DNA of 64,000 nt, taken from IMG/VR virus record IMGVR_UViG_3300044998_001357, positions 64,001 through 128,000 of that record. One strand, 5' to 3'. The notes beneath the pieces were generated by a model. The model had not been told where the DNA came from and did no database searches. It saw nothing but the letters and a program-made list of their open reading frames with translations. The position numbers and the translations under genes are program-made. Below are positions 2,093 through 56,976 of this stretch, piece after piece (position 1 is the first letter of the stretch; the number at the start of each line of letters is the position of its first letter). The DNA is from a virus.

Positions 2093-2120
2093 CGTTTCTT
2101 TATTTGCGGCGATAGTCAAT

Positions 2121-2150: not shown

Positions 2151-2204
2151 TGGGTTTCCAGGGGCGAAGGAACGCTCCTGGGGACCATCGAGGCCCCTTT
2201 CTTT

Positions 2205-13472: not shown

Positions 13473-13648
13473 CTGCCGATGCAAACGGTACGCATGAACG
13501 TGGTAGTTAGCGGTCGTTCCACGCGAGAACTCGGGCTGATACCCCAGCAGATTCGGGACGCCCTGAGGATTCGCCTGTTTCAAAGTACCACGCTCTAGAC
13601 AGCGACCAATCCCATGATACCCTCCTGGCACCAATAGGAGGTAGTTTG

Positions 13649-16136: not shown

Positions 16137-16217
16137 TTGGTGTTCAACTGTGGTGTGGTTACAAGCCGGTCCTGTTTTTCTTTTGGGGGAACGGCTTGTT
16201 CACTGAGATTCTTTGTA

Positions 16218-16886
16218 ATGAACAAGGCTGATATTATCGTTTTTGACTTCGAAACAGGCGGCCTGGACCCCAATTTCCACGAAGCGATTCAGATTGCCGG
16301 TAAGGCGTATAATTGCCGCACTCTTGAACCCTACCCGGCAGAGGAGGGTGGTGAGTTCTGCTCACTGATGAAACCGCTCTACTTTGACCGTCTCAACGAT
16401 AAGGCGCTTGCGGTCAACGGTAAGACGCGCGAGATGCTAAAGGCCGCTCCCGACCAGAAGGTGGTCTGGAACCATTTTGTTGAGTGGGTCATGCGGTTCA
16501 ACAAAAACCGCAATACCTTTACCGCTCCCTTAGCAGCCGGGAAAAACATCCGGAACTTTGACCTTAAGTTTGTGGAGGTGTTGAACAGGCTACATTGCCC
16601 AAAAAAGGAAAAGACCATTCTGTTTAACCCCCGAATCCATGTGGAGCTTGAAGATATTATCTTTATGTGGTTTGAGAATGAAAAAAATCCTGAGAAGTGG
16701 AACATGGATGCGCTTCGAGACTACTTTGGGATGTCGAAGAACAATGCTCACGACGCATTGCAGGACTGTCGCGATACTGGAGAGGTTATTGTCCGCTTTT
16801 TGAAGCTTCACCGCAAGCTGCAATCAATGAAAGCAAAAGACGGAAGTCCAATGATTAAGTTTAAGGGGTCGCTAGCCAAGGCATAA
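16218..16886 (+). CDS. DEDDh 3'-5' exonuclease (DnaQ/epsilon-like)
   Basis: FDFETGG, N..FD, HDALQD. Confidence 0.9.
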   Translation: MNKADIIVFDFETGGLDPNFHEAIQIAGKAYNCRTLEPYPAEEGGEFCSLMKPLYFDRLNDKALAVNGKTREMLKAAPDQKVVWNHFVEWVMRFNKNRNTFTAPLAAGKNIRNFDLKFVEVLNRLHCPKKEKTILFNPRIHVELEDIIFMWFENEKNPEKWNMDALRDYFGMSKNNAHDALQDCRDTGEVIVRFLKLHRKLQSMKAKDGSPMIKFKGSLAKA

Positions 16887-16925
16887 TGCGATTTGTTGTA
16901 TATCTAAATTAATTTGGAGTTGGCG

Positions 16926-40300: not shown

Positions 40301-40340
40301 AGCGCACCAAACCACCAAGGAATGTACCTGGAATAATCAT
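37326..40340 (-). CDS. Large tail-tip/baseplate hub-like protein
   Basis: 1004 aa, SLLEIIDQVC...DFFVEL, TTSYRFQT; position near tape measure. Confidence 0.65.
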   Translation of the reverse strand: MIIPGTFLGGLVRSFSSSLGLGLGSPSQLNLQLVDDPVQGLFVQLPKVGTPLSFQFYGFTFRGLLQKAETGRGTEGNPVYSVVLSDPREILEGTQVITGGYSGSVGNVPNLLNPYGYWESVGYGVSGANDSGMTWRQVAVAIRAMVNAPRPVAYGGPLVFANQTYGLDLDDMPIPPEYYRVGGGVSSSLLEIIDQVCKDCGCDFFVELVGFTIKIRAVSRFRQPPLGTLSALANSNWGSSLIRSTVGLEMRNELTSAFLVGGEVHTMWSSIAIRNFWGYDPAGNPILSTPYVEMFNDAAGKPLQQINTEIVNLNASPVADILGNVRYLCTTLEMRMAQVNYESWALYLRRHRPIMADIIGVSSPFLNMGGANQAPVRANFVNDEWKEVLLAVNNAVQGDIHAKCMRMYEFVRGYADEFMGRKYLVGLPFILVQTDSETRRVTTSYEVADAGYFDETAAPLGLSPLNEDMLRNPDGRFRAFVAYSNLAGVDFSRISPQGAVLENNTLYLEVQVDPRMVSAPEPCVVVSLSGPVVEQSPDNVGNLDIVAAVLQMNPQQAQKRLQQAPIPIKVSAAVRHPTVACIPLKSNTSFYGPWFASGAPGKVRMEQDPSLTPWNYGGHALMNLAGQARVLQAITNMQVSETGTMELVGPPTTSLGNLLEAGGPNITSIDVQCGTQGVTTSYRFQTFTPRFGVLSKAFIERMRQNSLANMELRRAMRLALKEQVRQNIALGNAARGARVWMERQAKARKRETPHDCLLSHGFWDSDTQAYRQNTFTATFEECVSLCNATNTELFKNTAIMSLDGLFRPFSAGGYQGSMPRLQNQLINGVIPGVAQLNPWKQANDIEVYTWGESYRGLHAFRRGATPTSARVFGLRAPVVLVGWGFGLDGKCIPGSGDGTTFDHDHTYRQDKWKAGPLDPLWDDMRGVWTCHGTLKGRIYHDVPPQGSGLMVVRAGGAYDGDNTNYTSLTVWNWFGTAVNAPTKVIVSYIPTDNKWYIVAADCPG

Positions 40341-40767: not shown

Positions 40768-41301
40768 ATGCCAAATAAAGTCTATACCGCCAATGAGCAG
40801 CGAATCTTTTTCGTAGCACCCACGGTCGCCTCAGGACTGCAAAACACCTCGATATTGGTAGCTGGGCTGCCCCATGGTTCGGGCTATGTGTCCGACCCCA
40901 GGGATTTAGGCCCTTTTCCCCGCACGACGCTGTTCAACTGGCGTGCTCGCATGGCTTGTCAGTCCAATCCCACCCTCAACGGCAAACTTCAGTTGTTCTG
41001 GGCTGGTTTTGATAACCCGGATGATATCTCGCCAACAGGCACCCTGATTGGTATGGATGGCAATCTGGGAAGCGGCAACCACATGATTGCGGGTCGCGAA
41101 CGTAAAAGCAATTTGCAGTTTCTGGGTTCCATCACCGCCGACCGCTCTGAGTCGGGAGTTGCCTTTACCAGTAGCGGCCAATGCCAACTCCAGAGTCGCT
41201 TTGGGTCGCTCGTGGCGTGGAATGAAACCGGTGCGCAGCTGTCGACCCAGGATAACGCCTTTGTCTTCAGTCTCACCTTTGCGCCGGAAGAAATCCAATA
41301 A
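40768..41301 (+). CDS. Virion structural protein
   Basis: Beta-rich, AAGGGGG RBS. Confidence 0.6.
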   Translation: MPNKVYTANEQRIFFVAPTVASGLQNTSILVAGLPHGSGYVSDPRDLGPFPRTTLFNWRARMACQSNPTLNGKLQLFWAGFDNPDDISPTGTLIGMDGNLGSGNHMIAGRERKSNLQFLGSITADRSESGVAFTSSGQCQLQSRFGSLVAWNETGAQLSTQDNAFVFSLTFAPEEIQ

Positions 41302-41355
41302 CTCCTGCAGTTCATACAAACAAGTCATTATTGATTTTTGTTTGGAGAAACGAAG

Positions 41356-42621
41356 ATGACACCCGAGGGATTGGTGGGTTTTTGGCCCCTCATTCTCGAT
41401 TGGTCAGATATGGCAATGGGGCACATTACTCAGGAAAATCCCGCCTCGGCACTAATTAGCCAGGGGTCTCGCGGGCAGCGGGCCGGGTGTCAATTTGAAC
41501 AGGTCTATCCAGGGCCAAGCTTGACGTGGTTGGAGGTGGCCAGCGACCCTGTCTTTTCCTTTGACTACTCCCAGACCTGGAGCGTTTCGGGCTGGTTCTG
41601 GCGAGATGCCAACGATTCGGTTCCTGCCCCCTATGCCTTGTTTTCCAAGATGGATAGTACCGGGCAGACAGGCTGGGAGGTGCTCCTGTCTTCCACAGGT
41701 GCTTTGACCGCACGACTGGTTAGTGACCTGGCCGCCTCTCAAGGGGTCGAGGCGATATCCCAGACCGCTGCTGCTCAGGATGGGCAATGGTTTCACTTTG
41801 CCGTGTGCTTTGATGGTGTGTTTCGGTTCTGGCTGGATGGTCGCCCACTTGAAAGTATAACCACTTTTAACACTCCAGTGGGAAATCCGGTCAATACAGA
41901 CACGCTCAAATTCGCCGGAAGAAAGGCCGGCAACGAAGCCAACTTTAATGGTCTGCTTCGATTGATGCGAATCTACGACCGTGCCTTAAGTGATGATGAG
42001 ATTTCACGAATCTACAGAAAAGAATCATTCGTCGGTACGCACAAACGGCTCGCACTCCGCAGGGTGCCGCCCCTTACTCAGCTGGGTCGCTTGGACCTGA
42101 TGGTCGCGGTTGATTTGCCGGTCGCGCACCAGGCCGCTGTATCCTTGATGGTGAATGGGCACAACTTTGTGGGAAATGGTTATTTTGGCAGTCTGGACCT
42201 GACCCTGTATTGCGGTCCGGATGGGAAGAGACCCAACGCCGCCCTGGTCTTGTTTCTTGAGACCACCACCACCGAAAGTATTCGCCGAGGTATGAATCTG
42301 ACACTAAGTGGTCAGAACTGGTCGGCCTCCCAGGGTCTGGAACTCTGGCTCAACAATTTGCAAACCGGGCTGACTCAGGGCATAACGCTCTGGATTCGGG
42401 GCCAGGAAGCCCAAGAGACCGCCTCGCTTGGCTGGTTCCTTGCCCGAAATCCCAGTGAAGCGATGACACTCTACCTCCAGGCACCCGGAGAGCAACAATC
42501 CCAGGCGGTGCCTTTGTTTGTTGGTGGCGAAACAGGGCAAAATTACTCCCTGGAACTGGTGGTCGCGCAAGTAACGGGAGCTTCGGCAAAGGGCAGCATT
42601 CTTTATACCCACGGATTCTAA
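41356..42621 (+). CDS. LamG/concanavalin-like domain virion protein
   Basis: LVGFWPL, WSVSGWF, GQWFHFAV..DG...WLDG, FNG....RIYDRALSDDEI. Confidence 0.85.
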   Translation: MTPEGLVGFWPLILDWSDMAMGHITQENPASALISQGSRGQRAGCQFEQVYPGPSLTWLEVASDPVFSFDYSQTWSVSGWFWRDANDSVPAPYALFSKMDSTGQTGWEVLLSSTGALTARLVSDLAASQGVEAISQTAAAQDGQWFHFAVCFDGVFRFWLDGRPLESITTFNTPVGNPVNTDTLKFAGRKAGNEANFNGLLRLMRIYDRALSDDEISRIYRKESFVGTHKRLALRRVPPLTQLGRLDLMVAVDLPVAHQAAVSLMVNGHNFVGNGYFGSLDLTLYCGPDGKRPNAALVLFLETTTTESIRRGMNLTLSGQNWSASQGLELWLNNLQTGLTQGITLWIRGQEAQETASLGWFLARNPSEAMTLYLQAPGEQQSQAVPLFVGGETGQNYSLELVVAQVTGASAKGSILYTHGF

Positions 42622-42624
42622 GAT

Positions 42625-44067
42625 ATGAGTGTTAGTTACGATGGCAAAAAGCTGATACCGGCTCCGTTTATCTCCATCCAGAGAGAACACATAACCAGAG
42701 AAGATGGGACGCCCCTTTCCTCTCTTTACACTCTGGTGGTCAAGGGGAAGTTGCTGGCCGACCGTGGTTCGCCCAATTCTCAAGGGGTGTTTCATCAGCT
42801 TTCGGGCTATCCCGCCAACGAATCCCTGGTTGGTCCTAACCGGTTTGGGTCCATTCTGGCCAAACAAAAAGCGTTGCAAAACCTCTTTGCGACCGATGGC
42901 AGGCTGTTCGAGGTTCAGGCCTCGGAAAACCACCCGCCCTTGAAATTCCGACCCCGGATTCGCCGGGTTGACATCCCCGAAGGAGAAGGTCGAGGGGGTA
43001 ACTGGACCGAGTATTGCGAATATATCATCACCATGGAAGCAGACAGTATTGATGGTCTGCTTGATATCGCAAACTCGTTGCGGGTTAGCAAAGTTTCGGA
43101 AGATTGGTCGATTGAAATCCTGGATGAAAATCGTAACACCTATCGATTGTCCCATTCCGTGTCGGCCACGGGCAGACGACTGCTCGATGATAGCGGCAAT
43201 TTACTGGAAAATAAACAGGCTTGGGAGCACGCCCGCGACCATGTTCTCAACACCCCCGCTGTCCAGGGCAAGGGTATCGGCCTTGGACTCAAGCCTGAGC
43301 GCATGGAAGCCCCCGGCGTCCTCAACGCCTCTTCGCTGCAGGCGTTTAACTATTTACGAACCCAATCGATTGGGGAAGCGGCGGGCACTTTTGCGGTCAA
43401 TGAGACCTGGGTATGTTTTGACCCCCAGGGTCAACCACCCGCCGTCAGCGAATACAATATCGTCATCCGTAGTTCGACCAACGATAATCGGACCACTGTT
43501 TCGGTCGATGGGTCCATCACCGGTCTAGAAGTTCGCGACAATACGACGCATGATATTATCTCGACGCGATGGGATAATGCTTACGCGAAATGGACTAATC
43601 ATGTTTCGCCTAATCTTTTTACAACCGCCCAAAGCGCGACAGCGACAATTCTCAACCCGATTCCCTTAAGCAGCCAACAAGGGCAGAATCGGCTTAGTGG
43701 CACCATCACTTACACCTACGAATTTGACAATCGGCCTGTGGCGACCACACCTGGTGCCCTATCCGAAAGCATCACGATTCAGGATGTCGGCGCTGCGGAT
43801 GTGTTTGCCACCCTGCCTGTGCTGGGTCGACCCCTGGGGCCTATTCTGCAGGGAATTGGGACCAAGACCGCAAAGAAGCGAACCATCAATATCGAAATTC
43901 AGATGCCGCCCGCCACGACCAATTCGGTAAGCAGTCAGCCCAACACCAACACGGTGGTTTTGTTGTATCTCCCGCCGGGAACTCAGGTCTATCTTGAGCA
44001 AGACGATGAAACCTGGACCCCGCTGACCGGCCGTTATACAAGAAACACTGTTTATGTGTGGGTGTAA
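42625..44067 (+). CDS. Tail protein
   Basis: T/S-rich beta protein, GTITYTYEFDNRP; tail context. Confidence 0.6.
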   Translation: MSVSYDGKKLIPAPFISIQREHITREDGTPLSSLYTLVVKGKLLADRGSPNSQGVFHQLSGYPANESLVGPNRFGSILAKQKALQNLFATDGRLFEVQASENHPPLKFRPRIRRVDIPEGEGRGGNWTEYCEYIITMEADSIDGLLDIANSLRVSKVSEDWSIEILDENRNTYRLSHSVSATGRRLLDDSGNLLENKQAWEHARDHVLNTPAVQGKGIGLGLKPERMEAPGVLNASSLQAFNYLRTQSIGEAAGTFAVNETWVCFDPQGQPPAVSEYNIVIRSSTNDNRTTVSVDGSITGLEVRDNTTHDIISTRWDNAYAKWTNHVSPNLFTTAQSATATILNPIPLSSQQGQNRLSGTITYTYEFDNRPVATTPGALSESITIQDVGAADVFATLPVLGRPLGPILQGIGTKTAKKRTINIEIQMPPATTNSVSSQPNTNTVVLLYLPPGTQVYLEQDDETWTPLTGRYTRNTVYVWV

Positions 44068-44138
44068 ACATAGCTTTAAATAATCCATCTTTTGTTTATT
44101 GTGTGATGCCACAAAACAGATTCTAGTGGCCAACCCTC

Positions 44139-44167
44139 TTGCAAAATCCATGATGGTTATATAGACT
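44139..44167 (+). promoter_or_regulatory. Sigma70-like promoter for lipoprotein gene
   Basis: TTGCAA-17 nt-TAGACT. Confidence 0.4.
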
Positions 44168-44235
44168 CATTTTGTCGCCCCTGGGCTGGGGAGACTCTAA
44201 ACGCTTGAGGACAGGTAATTAGGAAGACTAACACA

Positions 44236-44640
44236 ATGCAAACAAAACCTTTTCTTGCCATTCCCCTTTTGTGCCTGTTCGTTGGCTGCGAGCGACCCGC
44301 AACCAAGCCTATTCCACAACCAGCTTCTCCGCCTAGTAAAGTTCCAGAACCGTGGTTACAACCACGGCCGGTTGGTCTGACTGAGAAAGAGAAGGCAATC
44401 AAGGAGTTATTGCTCCGAAAAATAGCTCAAAAACGAGCTCGCGAGCGTGATAACGATGAGCATGAACTTCATCTAATCACCGAAAGGATGCGCGCCGCAG
44501 CCGGAAATCAGCCACGATTTCGCGCATCACGAGTCGGTGAGTACACTGAATACTTCATGATTGGACTTCGAGAAGCATTCAAAGACGCAACACCTGAAGA
44601 TGTGATGATAGCCATGCGGAATATGGGTATAACTCCCTAA
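44236..44640 (+). CDS. Lipoprotein
   Basis: Signal peptide with lipobox LFVG/C, Pro-rich tether. Confidence 0.75.
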   Translation: MQTKPFLAIPLLCLFVGCERPATKPIPQPASPPSKVPEPWLQPRPVGLTEKEKAIKELLLRKIAQKRARERDNDEHELHLITERMRAAAGNQPRFRASRVGEYTEYFMIGLREAFKDATPEDVMIAMRNMGITP

Positions 44641-47600
44641 TCCAGATTGACCCCCGAATCAGGCATTTGCTCTCGGAAGATGCGGTTGAGCGAGGCACGC
44701 ACTTCCTTGGTAATCATGGCCTGAATTTCCGGGCTAATCCGAGACAGAACCTCTGCGCCGTTGATGTTGACATTCACCTGGTGAGTTCCCTGCAGGGTAA
44801 TGTTCTGCGGGATTCGTGAAATCGCGTCCGCCAGGGCGTTCGCGCTCCCCAAAAAGGAGGTGAACCCCTGGGAAAGCCGGCCCACGACCTCACCAAACCC
44901 ACCCGCCGCCCGCACAAACGCATTAAGTGTACGCGACAGCTGGTCGATTGCCTCACGCGGAATGGAGGGGCCAGGGATGGACTGACCACCAACCGCACCA
45001 CCCTGATTGAGTCGCTCCAGCGTGGGAGCACCCAGACCGCTGGCGGCTCGGCGGTTGAGGACAAACTCTCCTGGGGTGAGCAGGGCAGGGACAGTATCGA
45101 AAATTCCCGAACCCGGAACAGGACCGCCCGTGGCCATCCGGAGCGGTCGCTTTGCACCCACCATCACCACACCGGGTTGTGTGACGCTACGCAGCCAACG
45201 CTGATACTCGCGACTCTGGCTCGCGTTTTCTTTCCGAATCATCCCTTCGCGAGAAAGCAGGCTCATGGCGATGTTGCGCTGCCCGTCTTCGCCGGGACGA
45301 CCCAGCCCGCCAAACGAGCTTCGCTGGATGAAGTTCTCCATCTGGCTCGCCATGGCCAGCTGACCGACCTGAGCGGCCACAAAGAAGCGTTTTTGTCTCT
45401 CGTTAAACTTTCTGTCTCGAAACAGGTTGTTGCGAATGTAGTTGTTCGCTACCCAACCCTGAAGAACCATTGCCGAGGCCCCAAACGGGTTGATTGCTGC
45501 CTCCATTCGCAACTGCTCTTCGAGCTCAGCCGTGCCACCACGCGCCAGATAGACCGGGGAGGTCGACGAGTTAATCCGGCGCAGCAGTCCGGCGTTAGCC
45601 TGGGCAGAACGCCGATTGACCACGAACTCGCCCGGGGTCAGCCAGGCCGGAACCGTGTCCGTTCCCAGGGGGGAGCCAGGATGGCCGGCGACGTTGCCGC
45701 CGGTGGCCAAGCGAGCGGGAGCACCCTGAGGTGGGACATTCCCACCGGGAATTTGTTGCCGCAGACGAGCAATGGTGTCGGCCAGGGCCTTGAGTTCGGA
45801 GTTAACCTTGTTGATTTCCGTACCCAGATTTTCCAGCCGGTTATCCGTGGTATTGAAGGCGTTGAGGGCTTCCAGGAACTCCTGAGCGGCCCGTGGCCCT
45901 CCCTGCTGAAGCCGCTTTTCCAGTCCGGCGGTATCAAGACCACGGATGCCTCTGAGGCTTGCTATCGCTGTTTCAATCTCTTGATTCACACGAGCAAACT
46001 CACCGCCTGCTTTGGCGTCTCCCAACTCTAGTTTGATTGCCTTACGAATATCATCTCGGAGTACTCGATTATAACCGTCGGGTGTATGTACCTCCTCAGG
46101 AGTGATTGGTTTGGTTCGCACTTTTGCGAATCTTTCATAGGCGATTCGTTGAGCCGATTTCTGATCAACCCCCTGATTTTGGAGCCACCGAAACAGAGAT
46201 TCTTGTTGTTGCGGCAAATTCCCATTAATTTGAACATTGTCAACATCGGCAAGCGCTCGTTCTCGTGCTGTGTTGATTTGCGAGCGTTGCGTTAGCCCAC
46301 GAATCAGCGACTCGGCGCTTCCCCGCTGGTTCTGAAGGGCGACATATTGGTCGGTCGTGGTGACGCCAATACCGGCAAGCATATCACGTTGATTGGCAAG
46401 TCGTCCCAGGCGACCACTTTGCGCACTGAGAATGCCCTGACGATTTTCCGCTTCGACCAGGCGTTCTTTCAGCAGAATCGCCTCCAGACGAGCGAAAAAC
46501 TGCTCCTGTTGGGTGCCTAGATTACGGAAGAACTCGGCCGAGTTCTGTTGCTGGAATTGAATCAGCTGTATAGTGGCATCCTCGGCAGCCTTGAATCGCT
46601 GACCAATAACATCCTGGAGTTGCCGCTCTTCTTGTTGTTGACCATCATTCAGCCGGAAGGCACCGCCAAACGAATTGGAAAGTAGATTCTTAAGCAGGTC
46701 GTCGGCCCGGGGCGAGCCGGCAAAACCAGTCAACGTCACACCACCGGCCGACCGGAGCGTCTCGATGATGGAACGACGGTCGTCAGCGGAGAAGTTATCG
46801 AGATTCCCCTGGCGGGCCGCCTCATTGGCCAGAAGTAAGCCCCGGTTCATCCGCACCATCTCTTCAGGCCCGGCGGTGGCAAACCGTTCGGCAAGCCCCA
46901 GTCGGCCCTCCTTTTCCTGCTGAAGTCGGGACAGCTTCTCTTGAGCAACCGAAGTCTGATTGGTGACATCAGTCAGATTGCGCAAAGCGGTCTGCAGGTC
47001 GGCGGCACGCGATTTGAGACGGAGCACTTCTTCGGCCGCTTGAGCAAAAGCGGGGCCTCGACCACCGGTTTTGATAAACTCCTGTTGCTGGTTTCTTTCA
47101 GCATTTAGAAGTTGCGCACGGGTCTCACCCAAGCGACGACCCAAAAGGATAGGGTCAAAAGCCGCAGGCCCTGCCACACCCGCCAGTCTCGACTGCCGAG
47201 AGCGCTGACCAAACTCCAGCTGCTCTAGGCCGGCAAAATCCAGCGCCTGATTCCCACGTCCTGCGCGACTTGCCATGACTTCCAGATTCTGACGGAAGCG
47301 ACTGGTTTGTACGGAGGCTAGTTGGTCAAAGGACTCGCCAATCTGACGCAGACGACTAGTCAGTTGAGTAAGCTGCTCGGTCAGTTGATTCGCGTTGTCC
47401 TCCAGTTGACGTGCAACCTTACCGCCGATGTTTTTCAGGGGCTCGGCAAGATTCTGTAGTAGGCTACCACTCAGCGCGGTGGTATCCACCTGAACCTGAT
47501 TGATGAGGTTGGTCAGGCCCCCTCGGTCACTACTAAGTTCCTCGTTGAGCCGTCGACGTACCGAAGCCCGGGCGACACGAGCCTCCGTGTCGTCACCCAG

Positions 47601-50600
47601 ACGCTCGCGCAGCAGACGGTCCACCTGAGTGACAACATCGGCCTCGGAATTGTTTTGCGCGCCGGCTACCACGGTAGCCAAAATTCCCGGCAGAACACGC
47701 GACAGATTGTCCACCTGCGTGCCGGTGTTCAGCAACCTGGCACCCATTTCGCCACCTATGGCAGCAACCGTTTGCAGTGGCTGCAACCCCCCCCGGTCCA
47801 GTCTACCCAGCTGGTCCAGGTTTTCCGCACGAATCGAGACACGACTCGCTCCAATGGTCCCGTCAAAGACCTCAGCCAGGGCCTGACCACGCTGGCGAAG
47901 CTCCAAAAGCGAATCGGAGGCTGATTGAACAGCAAGCAAAAGACGACCAAACGAATTTATATTCTTCTCGTCTGTCTGTCGTCCCTCCAGATTACGCCGC
48001 TCGCTCAGGGTTGCCTGTTGCCCCTGGAGCACACTTTTGCGTAACTCTAAGAAAACATCATCAATGGACAGACCACGAATCGAGGCAATTAGTCGCACCA
48101 GTTCGTCGTTGAGGCCATCACCACTCGCACGCAGCTGCTGAATAATCCGACCAATATCTCCGTTGTATTGGGCTCGGCCCAGCGATTCCGCGTTGCGTTG
48201 CAGGTAGGACATCATCGAAGGCAGCTGCTGACCGAAATCCTGTCGTAGTGAGCGAGCCTGAAGTTCGCCAAAGCCCTTGGGGTCGTAGCCGCTGAAGAAG
48301 TAGGTCGAGGCAATCCGGTTTTTCTCAAACGCCTCTGCTCGGGCGGTTCGCAGCGAATCCCTGGCGGCGGTGATAAACCGACCATCGGTGGCCGGACCAA
48401 GATTGGCGAGTTGCTGAATCTTGTCGGAAAAAATAGTAAGAGCGTTGTTGATTTTGACCTGGCGAATCTCATCGGCACTCTCTCGCAGAGCGGACACCAC
48501 GCCTGCGACACCGCCAACAATTGCGCCCGCCGCACCGCCAATCACCGTTCCCACCAAAGGAATCATGCTGCCGACCGTGGCACCGATGGTTCCACCCACC
48601 AGAGCACCTTGCAATCCCCCTGAAATCGCCCGGTTGTTCGCATAGTACGAGGTGGAGCCGGCGGTTACCGCGTCTTCCACCCGGCCTGCACGATTATCAA
48701 AGAACGCCGACATCGCCGGAACGGCCATCATGGCCGCAATGGCACCCGGGCCTGAGAAAATGTTGGCAACCGGACTATTGTCCAGTCGTTGGGCCAGCCT
48801 ACTTGGTGTGGTCAGCCAGTTCCCCACCGCGCCCGCCATGCCGCCCAGGCGGTAGCCCAGACCACCTGCCAGGGGTGCATCAATACCTCGCGTATTGGCC
48901 TGTCGGACCGTTGATTCCAGACCCGCGATTTGTCCCGTGTTTAAACGTATCACACGAGCCTGACCCGACATGGCGGCTGCCACATCCTCGGTCGCCTTGC
49001 GATGAAGTTCCATGGCCGACATTTGCGGGTTGAGCTTCGCAAGCAATCGGCGTTGCGCCGAATAGAGTTCTCGCTCCGTTTTGGCGGACTCGGCGGCAAG
49101 GGCCTCTTGTTGAATCCGTGTTTGAGTCGTTTGGCTTAAATTATTTGCTCCACCCAGCCGACTCATTCGCCGATTAGCTTCCGTTTGCGCACGAGAGGCC
49201 AATCCGCCAGTAGGTACAATCTCCCCCGCTTCGTTCACCTGGGTGAGCGATTCACTACGAAGACCGATGCTCTGCAACATCCGCTTTTCAAGAATGGCTA
49301 GCTGGGTCGGCGACAGAGACCCCTTGGCCTGCTCCAGGAATGGGGTCATATCCTTAGAGCCGGAATTCCGGAATTGCTCCAGGATTCGCATCGTGACCAC
49401 ACCCGGGTCGTTTCGATAATCCTGAAGTTTTTGTTGGTTGTACCGAGCCTGTGCTTCTTGAGCCCTGACCTGTGCTTGCCTTTTCTCTTCCTGTTTTTGA
49501 CGCATTTTCGCTACGGCTTCTTCCCTCTTCTTGGAACCGGCGGCTCCAAAGGCATAGACAGCTGCGCCTGTACTTTGGTCTTGAAGCATCGCTTCTTGGC
49601 GTTGTCGAAGAGGGTCCACATAATTTCTGGCCTGGTATCGTTCCTCCTTCTTTTGCATCATTTTTTCGCCGGCTAGGTTTGCGATAATCTGCTCTTGATA
49701 TCGCACTGCCTCCGGGTCAGATTGAATCAGATTGGGATTAAATCCGGGGTCACGCCGCTTGACGGAGTTATCGAAATCTTTCTGGGTTGCCTTGACCTCC
49801 ATTTGGAATTTATAATTATCGAGTGCTTTCACGCGTTCGGCACGCAATTTTGTACCGGGAAGACCCTGAGAAACGTATGCGCCCGGCATACCGGTACTAT
49901 CTTTTACCATCTGTTTTACATACAGAGGGTCAGCATAACGGTTGCTTTCTTGACGCTGACGCGATTTTTCCATGGCCTGGGCAGCACGAGCAGCAGCCAG
50001 TACCTGCTCTTGATAATGGACAGCCCGTGGGTCTCTGGCCATCAGTGCCGGATTAACCTCGGCCGTGGAGCTAATTCCCAAGACCTTCGGTCGAGACTTG
50101 TAAGCCTCAAGCTCTTCTAGTTTCTTCTGTCGTAACGAACTACCCGGCAAGCCGTAAGCAACAAAACTACCCGGCATCCCAGATGTATCTTTCGCGTACT
50201 GTTTAAGGTACAAAGGGTCAACAAAAGGGTTGTTTTGTTGTCGCTGCAACCGAAGAAGAGCAATAGTCGAAGCAGCCGCCTCTGCCTGGGCTCGTTCAAA
50301 ATTACGACCCTGCCGTAGCTGTCTTTCAACTGCTTTGTCTAGATTTACTGCACGTGTTGCAGCAAGCATTTGTTCCTGATAACGAACCGCTACCGGGTCT
50401 TTTGCGGCAAATGCCGGATTGGGTAAACGAGCCAAAAACCATGCCTGCTCCCCGGACTCGGACGGTGTCGACGAAGAGGCGCGACCGCTTGTAGGCAGCT
50501 GATTCAACCAGGCCGGCGCGGGCATGGCAGGGTTGAGCCCCACGAGGGGGTTGTAGCCTAGTTGAGGGTAAGGCGGACGACCCTGAGGGTCGGGCGGGGG

Positions 50601-53600
50601 CGGAGGAGGGCCGGCCGCAGGCGGTGCCGGCGGTTGATTGGGGGGGACTTGCGCACCACCACCAGCCTGAGCGCGTCGAGCAGCAAGGCGCTCCTTCATG
50701 GAGCCCAATTTAACAGGAGGTGGCGCTTCCGCCGCTTTCATTTGCAAGAGTTGACGGTCTAATTCTTCACCAATACGAGAGTAGAGCGCGTCATTAGTTC
50801 CTGTTGCCGGCAGTCCAAGCTTCTTGGCAAATGATTTTAGTTCATTATAATTCGTCGGCGCAGAAACGCCCATCTTGGTAAGCAGGCGTTGAATTTCGGC
50901 GGACCTTTGTTCCTGAAGGAGCCCGGCAGCACCGCCCTCGCCCTTACCGGCGACATCCATCTCCTCGCCCCACGCCGAGGTCATGCGATACTCAAGGGTT
51001 TCAGAAATATCGCGTATTTTGGAATAAATGCCGCGACGGACATAGTTCCAGGGACGAAAATCTTTAGGGTCTCCCTGGTGTTGTATAACGGCTCGAGCAA
51101 GAGCACGGCTACCCGTTTCATACAGAATACCCGTGGGGTCCGAACCCCCAGCCACTCTCCCAATCGCCCTATCGATGATTCCCTTTCCTTCGAACTTGGC
51201 ATAGAGCGCAGCTTGTTGCGGCGTCATCCGCGAAAGGATATCGGCGGCACTTTGCTTTCCTTTGTCTGTCTGTTTGAGGGACTGAGTTGCTTCCTGAGCG
51301 GCCTGAGCCAGCCCCTTAAAGACAGGCCCCGCCTTAGTCATTTCCAAAACGATTTGAGTGGCGTTGGTGAGTGCTACTTTTAACTTGGCTGCCTCGGCCC
51401 GAACTGCATTCGCGATATCGGCGTTACCCTTGAAGTCGCCAAACTCAAAGGTTCCAGTCACCGATTCGTCTTTATTCGATACTTTGCCGCCTTTGGCATA
51501 GCCCCGAACCTTACCGGTCTGGTTCATATGATTCAGGTTCGCCAGCCCAATCCGAGAGGCCGCTTCTTTGTTGATGACAAATTCACCCGGCGTAAGCAAG
51601 GCAGGCACGGTGTCACTGGGGGACATTCCGCCCATAGCGAACTTCCGCTGCAGGAGCTTTGCCTGAAATATTGGGTCCGCCGGGTCGATGATGGCGGAGA
51701 AGGAGTTGCCTTTTGCCTTCCAGTACCGCTCGCCACCGGGCATCGCTAGTAGGGAGCGAACATCCCTGGGGGAAGCGGCAATAATATCCTCCGCCTCCTT
51801 CTCGCTCAGTAGGCCGCATTTGACCGCTGTGGCCATGCTTGACCTGAGTCGTGACCCAATGAACCGCCTATCCAGCCGGCCGTTCGCACCGAACTTTGTC
51901 GGCCAGACGTAGTAGCCTTGGAAGTCCTCGCCACGGGCTGCTAGCAGGGACATCTTCGGGGTTTCCACAAACCCCCCCGTAAGTGACGCCAGGGCTTGTC
52001 GCGCCAGCATCCGCGATGCCGAGCCGGATTGCCGAAAATCCTCATTTACAACGAATATTGAATTATTAATGCTGGCCTCGTAGGGGCTACTGGACGGGTC
52101 AACCCCACTATGTTTCTGGTAGGTCACCATACGCTTGGCGGAATACAGGTCATCCTTGTGTCTAAACCGGACATTGACCCAGCCGTAATTTTCCCTGCTG
52201 TCCTTCGACACGTTCAGGTGTACGATGTCGTCTGGACCAGCGCCCGCCAGCATGGCCGTATTTTCGAAGCCGTGTCGCTTGATGAAACTGTTTTCCAGTG
52301 CCCCTGATACCCATATATTGCGGCTCAGCGGGCCGGTCACGCCACGCCTCCTGAGCTCCTCGACGAAAGCCGTGTGATTCGAGCGGTCGACACTACCACC
52401 GCTGGCGAACCCTAACCAACGGGTGATTCCCCCCACCCATCCCTTGCCGCGAGCCAGATTACCAAAGAAGCCCAGGTCTTTGGGCTTGTAGTTTGCGTTG
52501 GTGCTCAACGCCACTCGCTCGATGATGTTCCGCTGAAAACCGCGTTGACGCAACGAATCAAGCTGGGTATTCTCTCGAAGGTTGCGGTCCATACCGGTTA
52601 GTGACTGGGCAAAAAGGTCCGCAAACCCCTCGTGGGCGGCGTACCGATAACGGCCCATCTGAGCACTAACATTGAGCCTGTCGGCACGGTCGCGTCTTCG
52701 GGTAATCTCGCCCTGAATACGGCCATAACGGTGAGCGCTCGTAAAATCGCGCTTGCTGGCCAGACCACGCCAACCATCCAGGTAGTTGTCGGCCGCATGC
52801 CCCAACTCGTGAGCAAGCGTGTACTTCAGTTGCTCAAACGAATTGATTTTTGATTTCGCGAGAGTGATAGTACCACGCAGGTCGCTCACATCTTTGGATT
52901 GCCTGTATACCCCTCTTGCCCCTGGAGACTTATCGTAGGTGTCGACGACATCGATGGTTCGCACCAGCTTGCGAAAATCAATCCCGGAATTTTGGCTTAG
53001 TTCCAGCAGGGCCTTCTTGATGGTATCGTTATTTAGGACGAAACCGTCTGAGGTGTGCTTCCGGCCTGTCATTCCCCTGAATGAAGGTCCGCCGGGAGCA
53101 CTTCCCATCAGTGTGTTGGCCTGACCACCCCGAGCAAAGCGCTGAACTCTTCCCTCGTTGAGTTCGGTCAGACGGTCGTAGCCAATCTGTCGGGCAGAGG
53201 ATTTGCGAATGATGAATTCGCCCGGAGTGAGCACCGCCGGAACAGTATCGCTATCTCCCACACCGGGAACGACGCCGCCACGGGCAAACCCACGAATGGG
53301 TTTGCCAACCTGGGCCGTTAAGCTGTTGACAAAGGCCCGAGTGGCTCCCCCCAGGCTTGTACCAATCTTGACTGCGGCAATCGCGGCCAGAACCGGCACC
53401 AGAGGCTGAGCGTATTCCAGGATTTTCGCAAACCCACCGGCAATTGTGATGAGCGAGTTAGCCAGGCCCTGAAAGCCCTTGCTATCGACCAGGCCGCGAA
53501 TGAGTTTGAGGTATTCCTCACCCAGACGTGCCGTCTTGTTGGCCAATGTTTCCTGCCGGGCCTCGGCCGCCGCGAGCAAGGAAATCTGACCGGTCATGGC

Positions 53601-54788
53601 GACATTGACCGCCTCCTGGGCAACCCGATTTTCCTTCAGGAGCGGAATCACCTTGGAGATTTGCCGGTAACCGCCCAGCTGCTCCACCACGGCGGCGAAG
53701 CGGGTATCGGTCTCGCGAAGACCCGCCAGGCCGGTGCTGAGCCGGTTGACTGCCTCGTAGGCCCCGACGAACTGGTTTTCGAGGTTTATATCACCCAGCG
53801 CCCGAGCTTCTTCTGCTGTGTAGCGAAGATTAATCCCCAGTTCGCGCACCGCCTGAACCGTGTCGGAACGCTGCAGACGAGTAAAAATGGTCCGTAAGCC
53901 CGTGGCAATCGTATCAGCCGATTCTCGAGTGGTTGCCCGTACCGAGGTGAACAGACCCATGAATTCGGCCAGGGCTTCCTGACCGGTCTTGGCATCACCG
54001 GCGACCGCAACGAAGGCACCACCCGCCTTTTGTATGGCGGTGATAAGGTCGCGCGACTCAACGGCGAAAGCACCGGCCACGGCGTTCATCGACCCGAGCA
54101 CCGAATTAAAATCCGCTGCCTGGGTCTTGAACTGACGCCATACAGCAATCAAACCTTCGGTGGTTTGCTTAATGGACTCAAAGTTGGGAGCCAGGTCGGA
54201 GCGTGCCAGCGCTTCCATGGCCACCTTGATCTCCGTCGAGGCCAGACCCGCCTGTTTCAAGACCACAGCCGATTCGGCGAGGGCCTGACTCGACACGCCC
54301 AAGGAGGTCGATAGCCGATTAATCTCGGTCCGGATTTCCGAGATACGATTGGTGGTATCACCTGAAACCTGGGCAATCTTGTTCATCTCGACATCAAAAC
54401 GAACCGCCGCAGTGACTGCCTGCTGGAAGGCACGAACGAAAGTAATCAACGAGCCTGCGGCCGCGCTAAAGGCCACAAATCGTCGAGTGGCCAGACCGGC
54501 CTGGCTGGCAAAATTTTCTAGCTGATTCACCCCGCCCTGGGTAACCCGGACTGTGGCAGCCAGGGTGGCATTCATGGTGGCGGCCTGAGACTGCACCCGA
54601 CGAAGGGCTGCTTGGGTTGCCCCCAGGCCCGAATTCAGACGTGCGATGCCCTGCCGAGAACCAGAACTGTCAATCGAGATGGTCGTATTTGCGCCGCGAA
54701 GTTGCTGATTGATACCATTGAGAACCTGCGGCAGATTGCGAGGCCCCTGAATGTTTAACTGAGCGACAATGTCGAAGACCTGAGCCAT
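44637..54788 (-). CDS. Giant tape measure protein with internal cargo domains
   Basis: N-terminal TMP core (FDVEMNKIAQV...), long helical regions, glycine-zipper TM segment, follows tail tube/chaperone genes. Confidence 0.88.
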   Translation of the reverse strand: MAQVFDIVAQLNIQGPRNLPQVLNGINQQLRGANTTISIDSSGSRQGIARLNSGLGATQAALRRVQSQAATMNATLAATVRVTQGGVNQLENFASQAGLATRRFVAFSAAAGSLITFVRAFQQAVTAAVRFDVEMNKIAQVSGDTTNRISEIRTEINRLSTSLGVSSQALAESAVVLKQAGLASTEIKVAMEALARSDLAPNFESIKQTTEGLIAVWRQFKTQAADFNSVLGSMNAVAGAFAVESRDLITAIQKAGGAFVAVAGDAKTGQEALAEFMGLFTSVRATTRESADTIATGLRTIFTRLQRSDTVQAVRELGINLRYTAEEARALGDINLENQFVGAYEAVNRLSTGLAGLRETDTRFAAVVEQLGGYRQISKVIPLLKENRVAQEAVNVAMTGQISLLAAAEARQETLANKTARLGEEYLKLIRGLVDSKGFQGLANSLITIAGGFAKILEYAQPLVPVLAAIAAVKIGTSLGGATRAFVNSLTAQVGKPIRGFARGGVVPGVGDSDTVPAVLTPGEFIIRKSSARQIGYDRLTELNEGRVQRFARGGQANTLMGSAPGGPSFRGMTGRKHTSDGFVLNNDTIKKALLELSQNSGIDFRKLVRTIDVVDTYDKSPGARGVYRQSKDVSDLRGTITLAKSKINSFEQLKYTLAHELGHAADNYLDGWRGLASKRDFTSAHRYGRIQGEITRRRDRADRLNVSAQMGRYRYAAHEGFADLFAQSLTGMDRNLRENTQLDSLRQRGFQRNIIERVALSTNANYKPKDLGFFGNLARGKGWVGGITRWLGFASGGSVDRSNHTAFVEELRRRGVTGPLSRNIWVSGALENSFIKRHGFENTAMLAGAGPDDIVHLNVSKDSRENYGWVNVRFRHKDDLYSAKRMVTYQKHSGVDPSSSPYEASINNSIFVVNEDFRQSGSASRMLARQALASLTGGFVETPKMSLLAARGEDFQGYYVWPTKFGANGRLDRRFIGSRLRSSMATAVKCGLLSEKEAEDIIAASPRDVRSLLAMPGGERYWKAKGNSFSAIIDPADPIFQAKLLQRKFAMGGMSPSDTVPALLTPGEFVINKEAASRIGLANLNHMNQTGKVRGYAKGGKVSNKDESVTGTFEFGDFKGNADIANAVRAEAAKLKVALTNATQIVLEMTKAGPVFKGLAQAAQEATQSLKQTDKGKQSAADILSRMTPQQAALYAKFEGKGIIDRAIGRVAGGSDPTGILYETGSRALARAVIQHQGDPKDFRPWNYVRRGIYSKIRDISETLEYRMTSAWGEEMDVAGKGEGGAAGLLQEQRSAEIQRLLTKMGVSAPTNYNELKSFAKKLGLPATGTNDALYSRIGEELDRQLLQMKAAEAPPPVKLGSMKERLAARRAQAGGGAQVPPNQPPAPPAAGPPPPPPDPQGRPPYPQLGYNPLVGLNPAMPAPAWLNQLPTSGRASSSTPSESGEQAWFLARLPNPAFAAKDPVAVRYQEQMLAATRAVNLDKAVERQLRQGRNFERAQAEAAASTIALLRLQRQQNNPFVDPLYLKQYAKDTSGMPGSFVAYGLPGSSLRQKKLEELEAYKSRPKVLGISSTAEVNPALMARDPRAVHYQEQVLAAARAAQAMEKSRQRQESNRYADPLYVKQMVKDSTGMPGAYVSQGLPGTKLRAERVKALDNYKFQMEVKATQKDFDNSVKRRDPGFNPNLIQSDPEAVRYQEQIIANLAGEKMMQKKEERYQARNYVDPLRQRQEAMLQDQSTGAAVYAFGAAGSKKREEAVAKMRQKQEEKRQAQVRAQEAQARYNQQKLQDYRNDPGVVTMRILEQFRNSGSKDMTPFLEQAKGSLSPTQLAILEKRMLQSIGLRSESLTQVNEAGEIVPTGGLASRAQTEANRRMSRLGGANNLSQTTQTRIQQEALAAESAKTERELYSAQRRLLAKLNPQMSAMELHRKATEDVAAAMSGQARVIRLNTGQIAGLESTVRQANTRGIDAPLAGGLGYRLGGMAGAVGNWLTTPSRLAQRLDNSPVANIFSGPGAIAAMMAVPAMSAFFDNRAGRVEDAVTAGSTSYYANNRAISGGLQGALVGGTIGATVGSMIPLVGTVIGGAAGAIVGGVAGVVSALRESADEIRQVKINNALTIFSDKIQQLANLGPATDGRFITAARDSLRTARAEAFEKNRIASTYFFSGYDPKGFGELQARSLRQDFGQQLPSMMSYLQRNAESLGRAQYNGDIGRIIQQLRASGDGLNDELVRLIASIRGLSIDDVFLELRKSVLQGQQATLSERRNLEGRQTDEKNINSFGRLLLAVQSASDSLLELRQRGQALAEVFDGTIGASRVSIRAENLDQLGRLDRGGLQPLQTVAAIGGEMGARLLNTGTQVDNLSRVLPGILATVVAGAQNNSEADVVTQVDRLLRERLGDDTEARVARASVRRRLNEELSSDRGGLTNLINQVQVDTTALSGSLLQNLAEPLKNIGGKVARQLEDNANQLTEQLTQLTSRLRQIGESFDQLASVQTSRFRQNLEVMASRAGRGNQALDFAGLEQLEFGQRSRQSRLAGVAGPAAFDPILLGRRLGETRAQLLNAERNQQQEFIKTGGRGPAFAQAAEEVLRLKSRAADLQTALRNLTDVTNQTSVAQEKLSRLQQEKEGRLGLAERFATAGPEEMVRMNRGLLLANEAARQGNLDNFSADDRRSIIETLRSAGGVTLTGFAGSPRADDLLKNLLSNSFGGAFRLNDGQQQEERQLQDVIGQRFKAAEDATIQLIQFQQQNSAEFFRNLGTQQEQFFARLEAILLKERLVEAENRQGILSAQSGRLGRLANQRDMLAGIGVTTTDQYVALQNQRGSAESLIRGLTQRSQINTARERALADVDNVQINGNLPQQQESLFRWLQNQGVDQKSAQRIAYERFAKVRTKPITPEEVHTPDGYNRVLRDDIRKAIKLELGDAKAGGEFARVNQEIETAIASLRGIRGLDTAGLEKRLQQGGPRAAQEFLEALNAFNTTDNRLENLGTEINKVNSELKALADTIARLRQQIPGGNVPPQGAPARLATGGNVAGHPGSPLGTDTVPAWLTPGEFVVNRRSAQANAGLLRRINSSTSPVYLARGGTAELEEQLRMEAAINPFGASAMVLQGWVANNYIRNNLFRDRKFNERQKRFFVAAQVGQLAMASQMENFIQRSSFGGLGRPGEDGQRNIAMSLLSREGMIRKENASQSREYQRWLRSVTQPGVVMVGAKRPLRMATGGPVPGSGIFDTVPALLTPGEFVLNRRAASGLGAPTLERLNQGGAVGGQSIPGPSIPREAIDQLSRTLNAFVRAAGGFGEVVGRLSQGFTSFLGSANALADAISRIPQNITLQGTHQVNVNINGAEVLSRISPEIQAMITKEVRASLNRIFREQMPDSGVNLD
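44997..53288 (-). repeat. Four AxGG...DTVPAxLTPGEF...GG protein modules in the TMP
   Basis: Copies at 53124-53288, 51486-51641, 45534-45710, 44997-45137; lone FASGG at 52395-52409. Confidence 0.9.
49500..50420 (-). repeat. Three ~105-120 aa repeats in the TMP
   Basis: NPxxxxxDPxAVxYQEQ...DPL..Q...G starting at 50420, 50054, 49739. Confidence 0.85.
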
Positions 54789-54848: not shown

Positions 54849-55631
54849 TTAGTTCAAATCGTCAACGAATTCGGTGAATTCGACCTTGAACTCACCCTCT
54901 TCGGTCAACAGATTACCATCGATATCGATGAGTTGACCGGCCTCGTTCACCAGACGACCCTTGTCGTCGATTAGCCGACCCTTGTCGTCAATCGGGCGGC
55001 CGTCCTTCCGAATGAGCCGCAGGTCGCTTGCTCGACAGAAACCGTACTTGATAAGGAAACGGTTTTCCGGAAGTTTCTGGAGGTAGTCATCTTCCAGACC
55101 GTAAAGCAAATTCCCAAGCTGTTGTGAGGCAGGGAAGATAACAGGGTCGTTTTCCCGGCTCAGATAGTCATCCACATCACGGAAGTACGGTTTGCCTGTA
55201 TCGCTATACACCACCAGAGTGGCCATCAGGTAGTTGAAACGAGCCCGTTCGGCGTAGGCCTCGGCGGTGTGTTCATCAAGCTCATTTCGCTCGGCTGTCA
55301 TCTGACGAAGCTCATTTCGCTGCTCCCGCATCTGGATGGCAATGTCCCGAGCTACCGACAGGGGGATACCACCCTGGGCCAGTTTCTTCTCGTTGGCCCA
55401 CAAATCGCGATTGATTTGCTTGAACTTCGCTTCCTTCTCGTCATCCCAGAGATTTTGTTCTCGCAGAACGCGTTCGATGGCCTGCCGGACCATCAGGCCC
55501 GACTGAGTGGCGTTGCGAAACTCGCGGTTGTAAACGAGTTGAGCCTGCTGCGAGACCCGGTGGTTAGGCCTGAGTACCGAAAAAGCGACCTTCTTGCCCT
55601 CAATCTCTACCTCAAAATTCTTCTTGTTCAT
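54849..55631 (-). CDS. Putative tail assembly chaperone
   Basis: Immediately upstream of TMP; C-terminal DxxGRLI repeats. Confidence 0.55.
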   Translation of the reverse strand: MNKKNFEVEIEGKKVAFSVLRPNHRVSQQAQLVYNREFRNATQSGLMVRQAIERVLREQNLWDDEKEAKFKQINRDLWANEKKLAQGGIPLSVARDIAIQMREQRNELRQMTAERNELDEHTAEAYAERARFNYLMATLVVYSDTGKPYFRDVDDYLSRENDPVIFPASQQLGNLLYGLEDDYLQKLPENRFLIKYGFCRASDLRLIRKDGRPIDDKGRLIDDKGRLVNEAGQLIDIDGNLLTEEGEFKVEFTEFVDDLN

Positions 55632-55912
55632 GCCTTCTCCTGACGACTGTTTCTGGTATTGGTTTCTCGATTGTTTAATTCTTTTTCAATACTTCGCAAC
55701 TGATGGTTGGCATGATTGAGAATATCGGTACGACAATTCTCCCACTCCCTCCGCCACGCGAGCTCATTCTCTGTACAATCTTTCTGGGACTTGCCATGCC
55801 CCCAGAGATGGCCAAAATAGTGCTCAAACCGAGCTAGCGCCCCAATAAAACTCGTTCTGCTCTTAGATGCAACTATCTGACTAATTGACTTGGGTTTTTT
55901 GATGTTATCCAT
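55628..55912 (-). CDS. Hypothetical protein
   Basis: Coupled to both neighbours. Confidence 0.7.
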   Translation of the reverse strand: MDNIKKPKSISQIVASKSRTSFIGALARFEHYFGHLWGHGKSQKDCTENELAWRREWENCRTDILNHANHQLRSIEKELNNRETNTRNSRQEKA

Positions 55913-56976
55913 TATCCACCTTTCATCATTCGATTCAGTTCCATCTTAATTTTACGCTGAGTGTCTGGCATGTCTTGTTCGTTAACAACCCCCTTTTTGT
56001 TCAAGTAGCTAAAGCGCTGCTTTTGAATACTGCGCGCAAAATCATCGTTCAGTTCCATTACTCTACGCGCATCATCATCGTTTTCGGCCACTAGGAAAAC
56101 TTCCTGGGCCTTGGAAATTTTTTCATTGGAGATATCCTGACTGACGTTACGAGACTTGAGCTCCGACTCATGCTTTCGTTTTTGTTTAATTAGCCATCCA
56201 TCAAACATGTCATCGTCTGAAAGTATCTCTTCATCGGGACAATCTGGTGAAGAGTAAACTTTCTCGTAAAGTGAGGATATCTCAACCAGAGCTATTTGTT
56301 CTTCGGTATGCATCGAAGCAGGAACGCCAAATAACTTTCCCTCGGTGGTTCGGGCGTTCCAGATTGACCGCCATGGGTCTGTCCTGGCTAGTTCTCGAAG
56401 CGTGGCTTCGTCCAGTCGTGTCTGTCCATAAGTAACCATCGCTTCCTCAATGATGGTGTCTTCGGAGTTCCAGTACGCCTCCTCGTCGGCAAAAACAGGT
56501 CTTCCATCGGGGTAACGCAGAGCAAAAGCCAGTAATAGTCTTGCCTTGGCCATGTCGGCGACTCCGTTGGCGGAATAGTGATAATAAACATTTCGCTCAG
56601 ACTGAAGGCTGTGAAGTGTCTCCTTGGCCCTGGTCAGAGCTTTTCGAATCGAGGCGTTTTCCGACGAGCGAAACCGGCTATCCAGAAGACCAACCTTGAA
56701 TTGCTCAATTTCCTTGGGTAGGGAGAGCAAAAGTTTTTGTTTCTCCTCCGTCCACAGACCCAGTTCCATCAGCAGGCCGAGTGCTTCCTCAGCGGAATAT
56801 AAATTTTGCTCCATCGCGGCCTGATAGGTTCGCTCGTGTAATTCGCATGCGAGATACTTCTGCTCCTGGGTTACGTTGGTAATCAGGATAACCCCACGCT
56901 CCAGTCGCAAACGAACCGTGCCTGAACAAATCCGCGCCACAAGAAGTTCCCTGCGGTCACGACTTCTGCTCACCAC
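55912..56976 (-). CDS. Putative tail assembly chaperone-like protein
   Basis: Helical, between tail tube and TMP, AAGGAG RBS. Confidence 0.5.
   Translation of the reverse strand: MVSRSRDRRELLVARICSGTVRLRLERGVILITNVTQEQKYLACELHERTYQAAMEQNLYSAEEALGLLMELGLWTEEKQKLLLSLPKEIEQFKVGLLDSRFRSSENASIRKALTRAKETLHSLQSERNVYYHYSANGVADMAKARLLLAFALRYPDGRPVFADEEAYWNSEDTIIEEAMVTYGQTRLDEATLRELARTDPWRSIWNARTTEGKLFGVPASMHTEEQIALVEISSLYEKVYSSPDCPDEEILSDDDMFDGWLIKQKRKHESELKSRNVSQDISNEKISKAQEVFLVAENDDDARRVMELNDDFARSIQKQRFSYLNKKGVVNEQDMPDTQRKIKMELNRMMKGG

Follow-up and report, generated by a model that had tools for sequence, protein, structure and literature searches.

Tape measure proteins (TMPs) of tailed phages are usually viewed as rulers that later form a conduit for DNA, and they are ejected at infection. 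The locus studied here raises the question of why one such protein should carry four copies of a module of ~60 amino acids (aa), and what the segments between these copies are. The stretch analysed (the window, 64,000 nucleotides) comprises positions 64001-128000 of a 148,783-bp IMG/VR virus record (IMGVR_UViG_3300044998_001357), rated 99% complete, from an uncultured phage; on its minus strand a single open frame of 3,383 codons (44637-54788) encodes the protein, hereafter P0001. The initial annotation described P0001 as a polyprotein in which the modules and a lone FASGG motif delimit effector cargo and act as processing sites and/or recombination joints. We found that the module is real, ancient and very widespread, and that the cassette architecture is well supported; proteolytic release of the cassettes is weighed separately below.

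By its sequence, P0001 is the TMP of a large tailed phage, as the initial annotation held. PF10145 (PhageMin_Tail) matches aa 154-373 (E 1.2e-15; 58.3 bits against a gathering cut-off of 33.2), the PHROG TMP families 4211, 167 and 28 match as well, a hydrophobic glycine-zipper segment (aa 2056-2119; window 48432-48623) is matched by phrog_6922 and DUF1269, and the gene order up- and downstream of the TMP is the same as in relatives, the neighbouring genes being without family matches. For comparison we collected 43 giant homologues (2,350-5,777 aa), which together with P0001 gave the 44 proteins used for segment clustering, and a second set of 188 related giant proteins for segment searches; aa 1-~560 of P0001 are 37-63% identical to relatives. 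No close relatives of the phage were found at the DNA level. A sheath family was not found in the 149-kb genome, and the tail is probably long and non-contractile; among its other gene products are ribonucleotide reductase, a DnaB-like helicase and a DNA polymerase III alpha in two parts.

The module begins with hAxGG (hydrophobic-A-x-G-G), continues with a short Gly-rich loop, the stretch DTVPAxLTPGEFV and two short helices, and closes with another hAxGG; its most conserved residues include both flanking GG pairs. P0001 contains DTVPAxLTPGEF at aa 514, 1059, 3044 and 3231, and [FLM]AxGG at aa 501, 551, 794, 1050, 3027, 3081 and 3218, so that all five ranges initially assigned to the four modules and the lone FASGG map exactly onto motifs found in the translation. 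Across the four copies 21 alignment columns are invariant, and the pattern [FLMY]AxGG occurs eight times in P0001 compared to 0.6 expected (500 shuffles, shuffle maximum 4). The lone FASGG is not significant by itself; it is supported by its alignment with the module opening of relatives. A profile built from the four copies matched all 43 relatives with 2-7 matches each, corresponding to ~1-6 modules after merging of adjacent partial matches. Among 1.84 billion representative proteins, 21,671 match the module at E ≤ 1e-3, of which 1,113 reach E ≤ 1e-30; the top-ranking proteins have lengths of 2,100-7,900 aa and contain 4-11 copies each. The module is absent from the families of Pfam and NCBIfam, and phrog_35029, which matches it four times, carries no function annotation. 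When a profile of 27 sequences (A3) was compared with all PDB sequences, only TMPs matched, with no other protein at E ≤ 1: Douge gp16 (6.7e-9, two copies), lambda gpH (aa 729-786; 6.7e-6) and JBD30 gp46 (1.6e-3). In 80 IMG/VR loci, 57 complete open reading frames (ORFs) carry 1-5 copies, and the distance between the last copy and the C-terminus is usually 36-150 aa; module 4 of P0001 ends 114 aa before the stop.

A tree of 59 module copies resolved a 'post-core' clade (support 99/88) and a 'last' clade (94/99), the first and the insert-linked copies remaining unresolved. Because the tree separates positional clades, the copies are taken to be old positional orthologues. Within the P0001 gene, the four module cores are 71-76% identical as DNA and no exact run exceeds 8 nucleotides (nt), which rules out a recent intragenic duplication or active homologous recombination between them. 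The joints are places at which inserts are exchanged, as initially suggested, but they are old and not sites of active homologous recombination within this gene. A different situation was seen in the relative P0012 (locus L003), in which the cores at aa 919, 1459 and 3207 are up to 90% identical at the DNA level, with exact runs of 24 nt, and intragenic recombination may therefore be possible.

Cutting the 44 proteins at their modules revealed a common scheme: an N-terminal domain (~500 aa), a module, between zero and three variable segments that each end in a module, the conserved core, a module, a variable segment, a module, and a tail of ~110 aa. The closest relatives (P0002-P0007) have three modules each and no zincin, and aa 1051-1326 of P0001 align directly after the first module of P0002 (506-797), P0004 and P0005. 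Therefore, aa ~556-1050 of P0001 represent an insertion, by which this phage gained a zincin peptidase and an orphan domain. Seven other giant TMPs among the 188 also contain the zincin segment, in quite different places. In an alignment of six sequences, hAxGG stands directly before the zincin in four relatives (YASGG/IVTAEN, YADGG/FVLNQ, FATGG/FVVNK and FASGG/VVSKE; the slash marks the border). The initial statement that each cargo begins immediately behind a GG holds exactly for relatives' zincin cassettes, whereas P0001 has TSDG at the aligned position, and its FARGG (aa 551-555) is separated from the start of the fold at ~aa 584 by ~29 Gly-rich residues. The motif behind the zincin is GFAxGG in P0001, P0016 and P0071, and KFAxGG in P0012 and P0014; P0010 has no module downstream of its zincin. 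In P0012 and P0071 the DTVPA core follows this motif directly (0 aa between), and the slot between the motif and the next module core measures 251 aa in P0001, 182 aa in P0016 (a PF01129-like ADP-ribosyltransferase, ART) and 171 aa in P0014 (a second HExxH), the three inserts being mutually unrelated. On this evidence, the lone FASGG at aa 794 represents the front end of a module split by the insertion of a domain plus a new AxGG.

The slot zone of relatives contains ADPrib_exo_Tox (E 1e-44), ART and ART-PolyVal (P0029, P0033), and two ARTs and a zincin are found combined in one slot; most other inserts are without annotation. The slot between modules 3 and 4 ranges from 122 to 1,203 aa and is occupied by different clusters among relatives. 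The check proposed with the initial annotation, a hidden Markov model of the module together with the expectation that segments between motifs vary while the flanks are conserved, thus gave a positive result among related TMPs. The comparisons support the view that domains enter and leave exactly at hAxGG borders and behave as swappable cassettes at conserved joints. No description of the module as a repeated joint, or of exchangeable effector cassettes in TMPs, was found in the open-access literature.

The first cassette of P0001 (aa 556-793) is a zincin as judged from its motif and predicted fold. It contains HELGH at aa 660-664, and the H, E, H and D of this region and the F-A pair of E-x-F-A are invariant in six homologues. 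An AlphaFold2 (AF2) model of aa ~584-774, based on the six-sequence alignment, reached a predicted local distance difference test (pLDDT) score of ~80, and in a VIA fold search its best match was the catalytic domain of lethal factor (1yqy; Z 9.3 over 170 aa), followed by MtfA-like 3dl1 (7.1), Pro-Pro endopeptidases (6.6 for PPEP-2, and 6.3) and many zincins down to ~5, Z values that are moderate. Stand-alone homologues were found neither for the 494-aa insert nor for the zincin alone, and none in viral contigs. The second cassette (insert 1b) has no relative among the 188 giant proteins and no match in Pfam (E ≤ 0.1), PHROG or NCBIfam; its AF2 model has a pLDDT below 50, so that structure prediction by segment was confident for the zincin but not here. 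A score of 0.92 in the ESM Atlas to a cluster in which 20% of the members carry PF00583 is a weak lead, and a GNAT identity of insert 1b is an unconfirmed lead only. Of the cargo kinds originally named, the zincin has thus held up, whereas the GNAT depends on that weak lead and the DNA-binding domain on a SAP-like match (aa 1315-1347) below Pfam cut-offs. P0001 contains none of the Pfam domains specific to polyvalent proteins (e.g., ART-PolyVal); it has one clear enzyme domain and one orphan domain.

The explanation that we favour, and hold to be fairly probable, is a conserved TMP scaffold with exchangeable inserts at the module joints, the inserts being delivered by the tail and their borders possibly cut. 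The scaffold would comprise the N-terminal TMP domain, the long core with its glycine-zipper membrane segment, and the C-terminal tail of ~115 aa; the four module copies would be the joints, of which ordinary TMPs such as lambda gpH and JBD30 gp46 have one near the C-terminus. The inserts would travel in the tail together with the TMP and, on infection, be expelled into the host's envelope or cell, and hAxGG borders might be cut during tail maturation to release the pieces. We infer delivery because TMPs are known to be ejected and because the RNA polymerase fused to the TMP of phage P23-45 acts in the cell. Alternatively, the repeats might be evolutionary scars of giant TMPs that grew by tandem duplication and end-to-end fusion of C-terminal units, the inserts being length spacers with no delivered function. 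Internal duplication commonly tunes TMP length, and P0001 has an orphan triple tandem repeat; furthermore, most inserts have no recognizable family and the module normally marks the C-terminus of TMPs. However, several inserts, such as the zincin and the ARTs (E 1e-44), are enzyme domains that are intact and retain their catalytic motifs, globular alpha/beta domains are poor ruler material, and the copies are strongly conserved positional orthologues and not decaying relics, so that we regard scars as very improbable.

Cutting of the TMP at hAxGG borders during tail maturation, with release of the pieces, is suggested by analogy with two cultured phages, and we consider this part of the favoured explanation possible but rather doubtful; the cassette picture stands without it. 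In lambda, gpH* and gpHC arise from gpH by a cut within its glycine-rich C-terminal region, the site and the enzyme not being known according to a 2025 study (PMC12617516), in which gpH* is cited as ~78 kDa; a hypothetical cut between F733 and A734, at the module start, would give a computed mass of 79.6 kDa. T5 pb2 is cut after R1127 (PMC10038345), and the site reads ...FVPR/AEGGMMYPG...GEHGTEVV, so that A.GG, a motif that occurs just twice in the 1,219 aa, follows the cut directly. Processing of TMPs is called common in the literature. The C-terminal tail of P0001 corresponds, by position, to the tail-tip part of lambda gpHC and T5 pb2C. In the T5 locus (L089:14122-17781, minus strand; pb2 residues 1121-1150), the GEH..EVV stretch after AEGG resembles a shortened or degenerate module; pb2 was dropped as a statistical homologue because the profile match is not significant. 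A bolder form of the idea, which we rate as unlikely, is that the gpH-type module is a portable processing signal, either self-cleaving or read by a conserved tail-assembly step, that would turn TMPs into tail-lumen polyproteins with interchangeable effectors freed at infection; the cut from gpH to gpH* would then fall at or next to FATGG 733-737. If this were true, thousands of environmental phages could load interchangeable effectors (ADP-ribosyltransferases, zincin peptidases and other domains).

Several observations weigh against the scaffold-and-cassette explanation or its cleavage step. The case for cleavage in multi-module TMPs is circumstantial, being an analogy with lambda and T5, and T5 pb2 does not match the module profile significantly and has Arg rather than a hydrophobic residue at P1. 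The RNA polymerase in P23-45 virions is part of full-size, uncut gp96 (PMC10770324), which indicates that a TMP-borne enzyme need not be freed by cutting. In the 80 IMG/VR loci, no module coincides with a break of the TMP into separate genes, and Prok-JAB, NlpC/P60, Peptidase_C39 and Peptidase_C48 have no match in the 149-kb genome. Insert 1b is without assigned function, the 122-aa segment between modules 3 and 4 of P0001 shows no enzyme-like feature, and it is hard to explain how 3-6 copies of a ~27-kDa folded domain would fit into one tail lumen. Folded alone (27 sequences), the module gave two short helices and otherwise coil at a pLDDT of 62, from which we conclude that it is not an autonomous domain, and this low-confidence fold is also compatible with a docking peptide. 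Finally, the zincin is absent from the closest module-bearing relatives and therefore cannot be the general processing enzyme. As to other enzymes, a phage-encoded GG-specific or lambda gpK-like peptidase was rejected as a candidate, none of the four families named above having a match in the genome. A papain-like peptidase was considered as well, but a Pfam scan of the operon suggested for it gave no peptidase family.

The same zincin could nevertheless be a maturation protease that cuts its own polyprotein at hAxGG, in cis or in trans, and is not directed against the host. Zincin-like peptidases have been proposed to process polyvalent proteins (Iyer et al. 2017, PMC5512222), and the P0001 zincin sits between hAxGG motifs with an intact and conserved active-site motif. 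However, P0002-P0007 keep three modules without any zincin, as do lambda, Douge and JBD30 with their modules, which makes such a role improbable; found in 7 of the 188 related giant proteins and missing from the closest module-bearing relatives, the zincin behaves as optional cargo.

The lone fold of the module, together with the uncut gp96 in P23-45 virions and the lack of gene fission at modules, agrees with another possibility, namely that the modules are docking hooks that fold on binding (a beta-strand and a helical hairpin) and latch the TMP to the baseplate hub, the distal tail protein or the tube wall, the inserts being ejected uncut in one giant chain. For JBD30, aa 1022-1066 of gp46, which correspond to the module, were predicted by the authors of that study to fold into a hook made up of two helices plus a beta-hairpin and proposed to anchor the TMP in the baseplate, and the final 43 residues of T5 pb2* become anchored in a hub crevice once opening has occurred. 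Yet there is one hub per tail, and 4-11 hooks per chain would be without obvious partners; the conserved GG pairs also mark insert borders that lack the DTVPA core, such as the lone FASGG; and the TMPs of lambda and T5 are cut beside this very element. We consider hooks as the sole explanation somewhat unlikely, but hook and cutting roles of the module are compatible, and a scaffold with exchangeable, tail-delivered inserts remains our preferred interpretation. The features of P0001 are compiled in Table 1.

Table 1. Features of the giant TMP P0001 (window coordinates).
Feature	Position	Strand	Evidence or remark
Whole TMP ORF, 3,383 aa	44637..54788	-	PF10145, PHROG TMP families, 43 giant homologues
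N-terminal TMP domain, conserved, aa 1-494	53307..54788	-	Cluster c0 in 42/44 proteins
Module 1, aa 495-559 (FARGG, DTVPAVLTPGEF, FARGG)	53112..53306	-	Nearly all relatives have a module here
Insert 1a, zincin metallopeptidase domain (motif, predicted fold), aa 556-793	52410..53123	-	HExxH aa 660-664 (52797-52811), E-x-F-A near aa 721
Lone FASGG, aa 794-798	52395..52409	-	Aligns with GFARGG of P0016 and P0071
Insert 1b, orphan 251-aa domain, aa 799-1049	51642..52394	-	Possible GNAT-like motif, weak lead
Module 2, aa 1044-1107 (FAMGG, DTVPALLTPGEF, YAKGG)	51468..51659	-	72% identity to post-zincin module of P0012
Segment common to closest relatives, aa 1108-1400	50589..51467	-	In them directly after the first module
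Proline-rich linker and 3 tandem repeats, aa ~1400-1760	49509..50591	-	Particular to the P0001 phage
Conserved TMP core, aa ~1756-3020	45729..49523	-	27-41% identity to relatives over ~1,000-1,400 aa
Module 3, aa 3021-3089, 'post-core' subtype (TDTVPAWLTPGEFVVNR..AQAN..LL..IN..PVYL)	45522..45728	-	Clade support 99/88
Variable segment, aa 3090-3211, 122 aa	45156..45521	-	Partial similarity only, to P0002 and P0003
Module 4, aa 3212-3269 (MATGG, DTVPALLTPGEF, GG)	44982..45155	-	'Last module' clade support 94/99
C-terminal tail, conserved, aa 3270-3383	44640..44981	-	Similar in 82/188 giant proteins

The repeats at aa ~1440-1760 (window ~49509-50470, minus strand) are three tandem units of ~105-125 aa with the pattern DPxAVxYQEQ ... 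DPLY.KQ ... GMPG ... GLPG; in the DNA they correspond to a repeat family (D1) spaced at 315 and 366 nt, and they have no counterpart in the 188 related giant TMPs. Three genes downstream of the TMP are inverted relative to relatives: the window carries three tail-tip genes at 40768-44640 on the plus strand (177 aa; 427 aa with Laminin_G_3; 480 aa), opposite to the TMP and to a 1,004-aa gene (37326-40340, minus strand). The homologous genes of the relatives L004 and L003 (40%, 25% and 43% identity) share the strand of the TMP and lie behind it, with products of 173, 476, 458 and 986 aa in that order. This arrangement fits a simple inversion of ~3.9 kb; no convincing inverted repeats were found flanking the block. 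An extra ORF of 134 aa (44236-44640) belongs to no family. Upstream of the TMP, a 260-aa protein (54849-55631, minus strand) shows N-terminal similarity (~30% over 132 aa, E 4e-5) to relatives' homologues of a 354-aa protein (55912-56976, minus strand) that is possibly the tail tube, a similarity that recalls chaperone/tube relationships in other siphophages. The two parts of DNA polymerase III alpha lie on the plus strand at 13646-15589 (PHP and NTPase domain) and 16914-18584 (finger and HHH); between them is an ORF of 249 aa (16137-16886), a layout that may reflect either a split gene or a mobile insertion. At the P0010 locus (L005:15368-16995), an IS605 OrfB/Cas12f-like TnpB gene and an HNH gene lie just downstream of the giant TMP.

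Among cultured phages, lambda gpH provides the closest link: it contains the same module once (aa 729-786; FATGG ... GEFVF ... YATGG), preceded by a hydrophobic glycine-zipper stretch and followed by 67 aa up to the C-terminus, and the protein is cut in the same region, but gpH has only 853 aa, a single copy and no inserts. Because the module occurs once in the region where gpH is cut, it yields a precise hypothesis for lambda that can be tested by mutation. JBD30 gp46 (Pseudomonas phage; module at 1017-1088) and Douge gp16 (mycobacteriophage; 964-1028 and 1410-1462) come from cultured phages with solved tails; unlike P0001 these TMPs lack enzyme inserts and contain one or two copies, and the module region is not resolved in the maps. 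In T5 pb2, the cut after R1127 frees a small C-terminal enzyme-bearing piece that is kept in the tail tip and ejected, but there is a single site, and the cargo is a cell-wall hydrolase motif and not an effector of the cytoplasmic type.

Enzymes within TMPs have so far been described one by one, as cell-wall hydrolases or as the P23-45 RNA polymerase. TM4 gp17 (mycobacteriophage) and the SPbeta YomI/CwlP-type TMPs, the latter distant relatives of the N-terminal domain of P0001, carry enzyme domains (peptidoglycan hydrolase motifs) within the TMP; these inserts, however, act on the cell wall, and a repeated joint or exchangeable sets have not been described for them. Polyvalent proteins are likewise giant and multidomain, contain zincins and ARTs, and have been proposed to be injected and processed, but they are thought to travel in the head or via the conjugation machinery and no conserved delimiting module has been described; TMPs are not mentioned in that study (Iyer et al. 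2017, PMC5512222). Proof of principle that tails can deliver enzymes has been published for gp96 of the Thermus phage P23-45 (5,002 aa, PMC10770324), a giant TMP that carries a cytoplasm-acting enzyme, the N-terminal virion RNA polymerase, into the host; it differs from P0001 in having no module and no hAxGG motif, in the N-terminal rather than internal position of the enzyme, and in that no cassette exchange has been described. Set beside these single cases, an uncatalogued joint of ~60 aa that occurs in 21,671 protein clusters and marks the exchange of enzyme domains merits a family model for annotation, and it points to a general modular route of protein delivery by phage tails.

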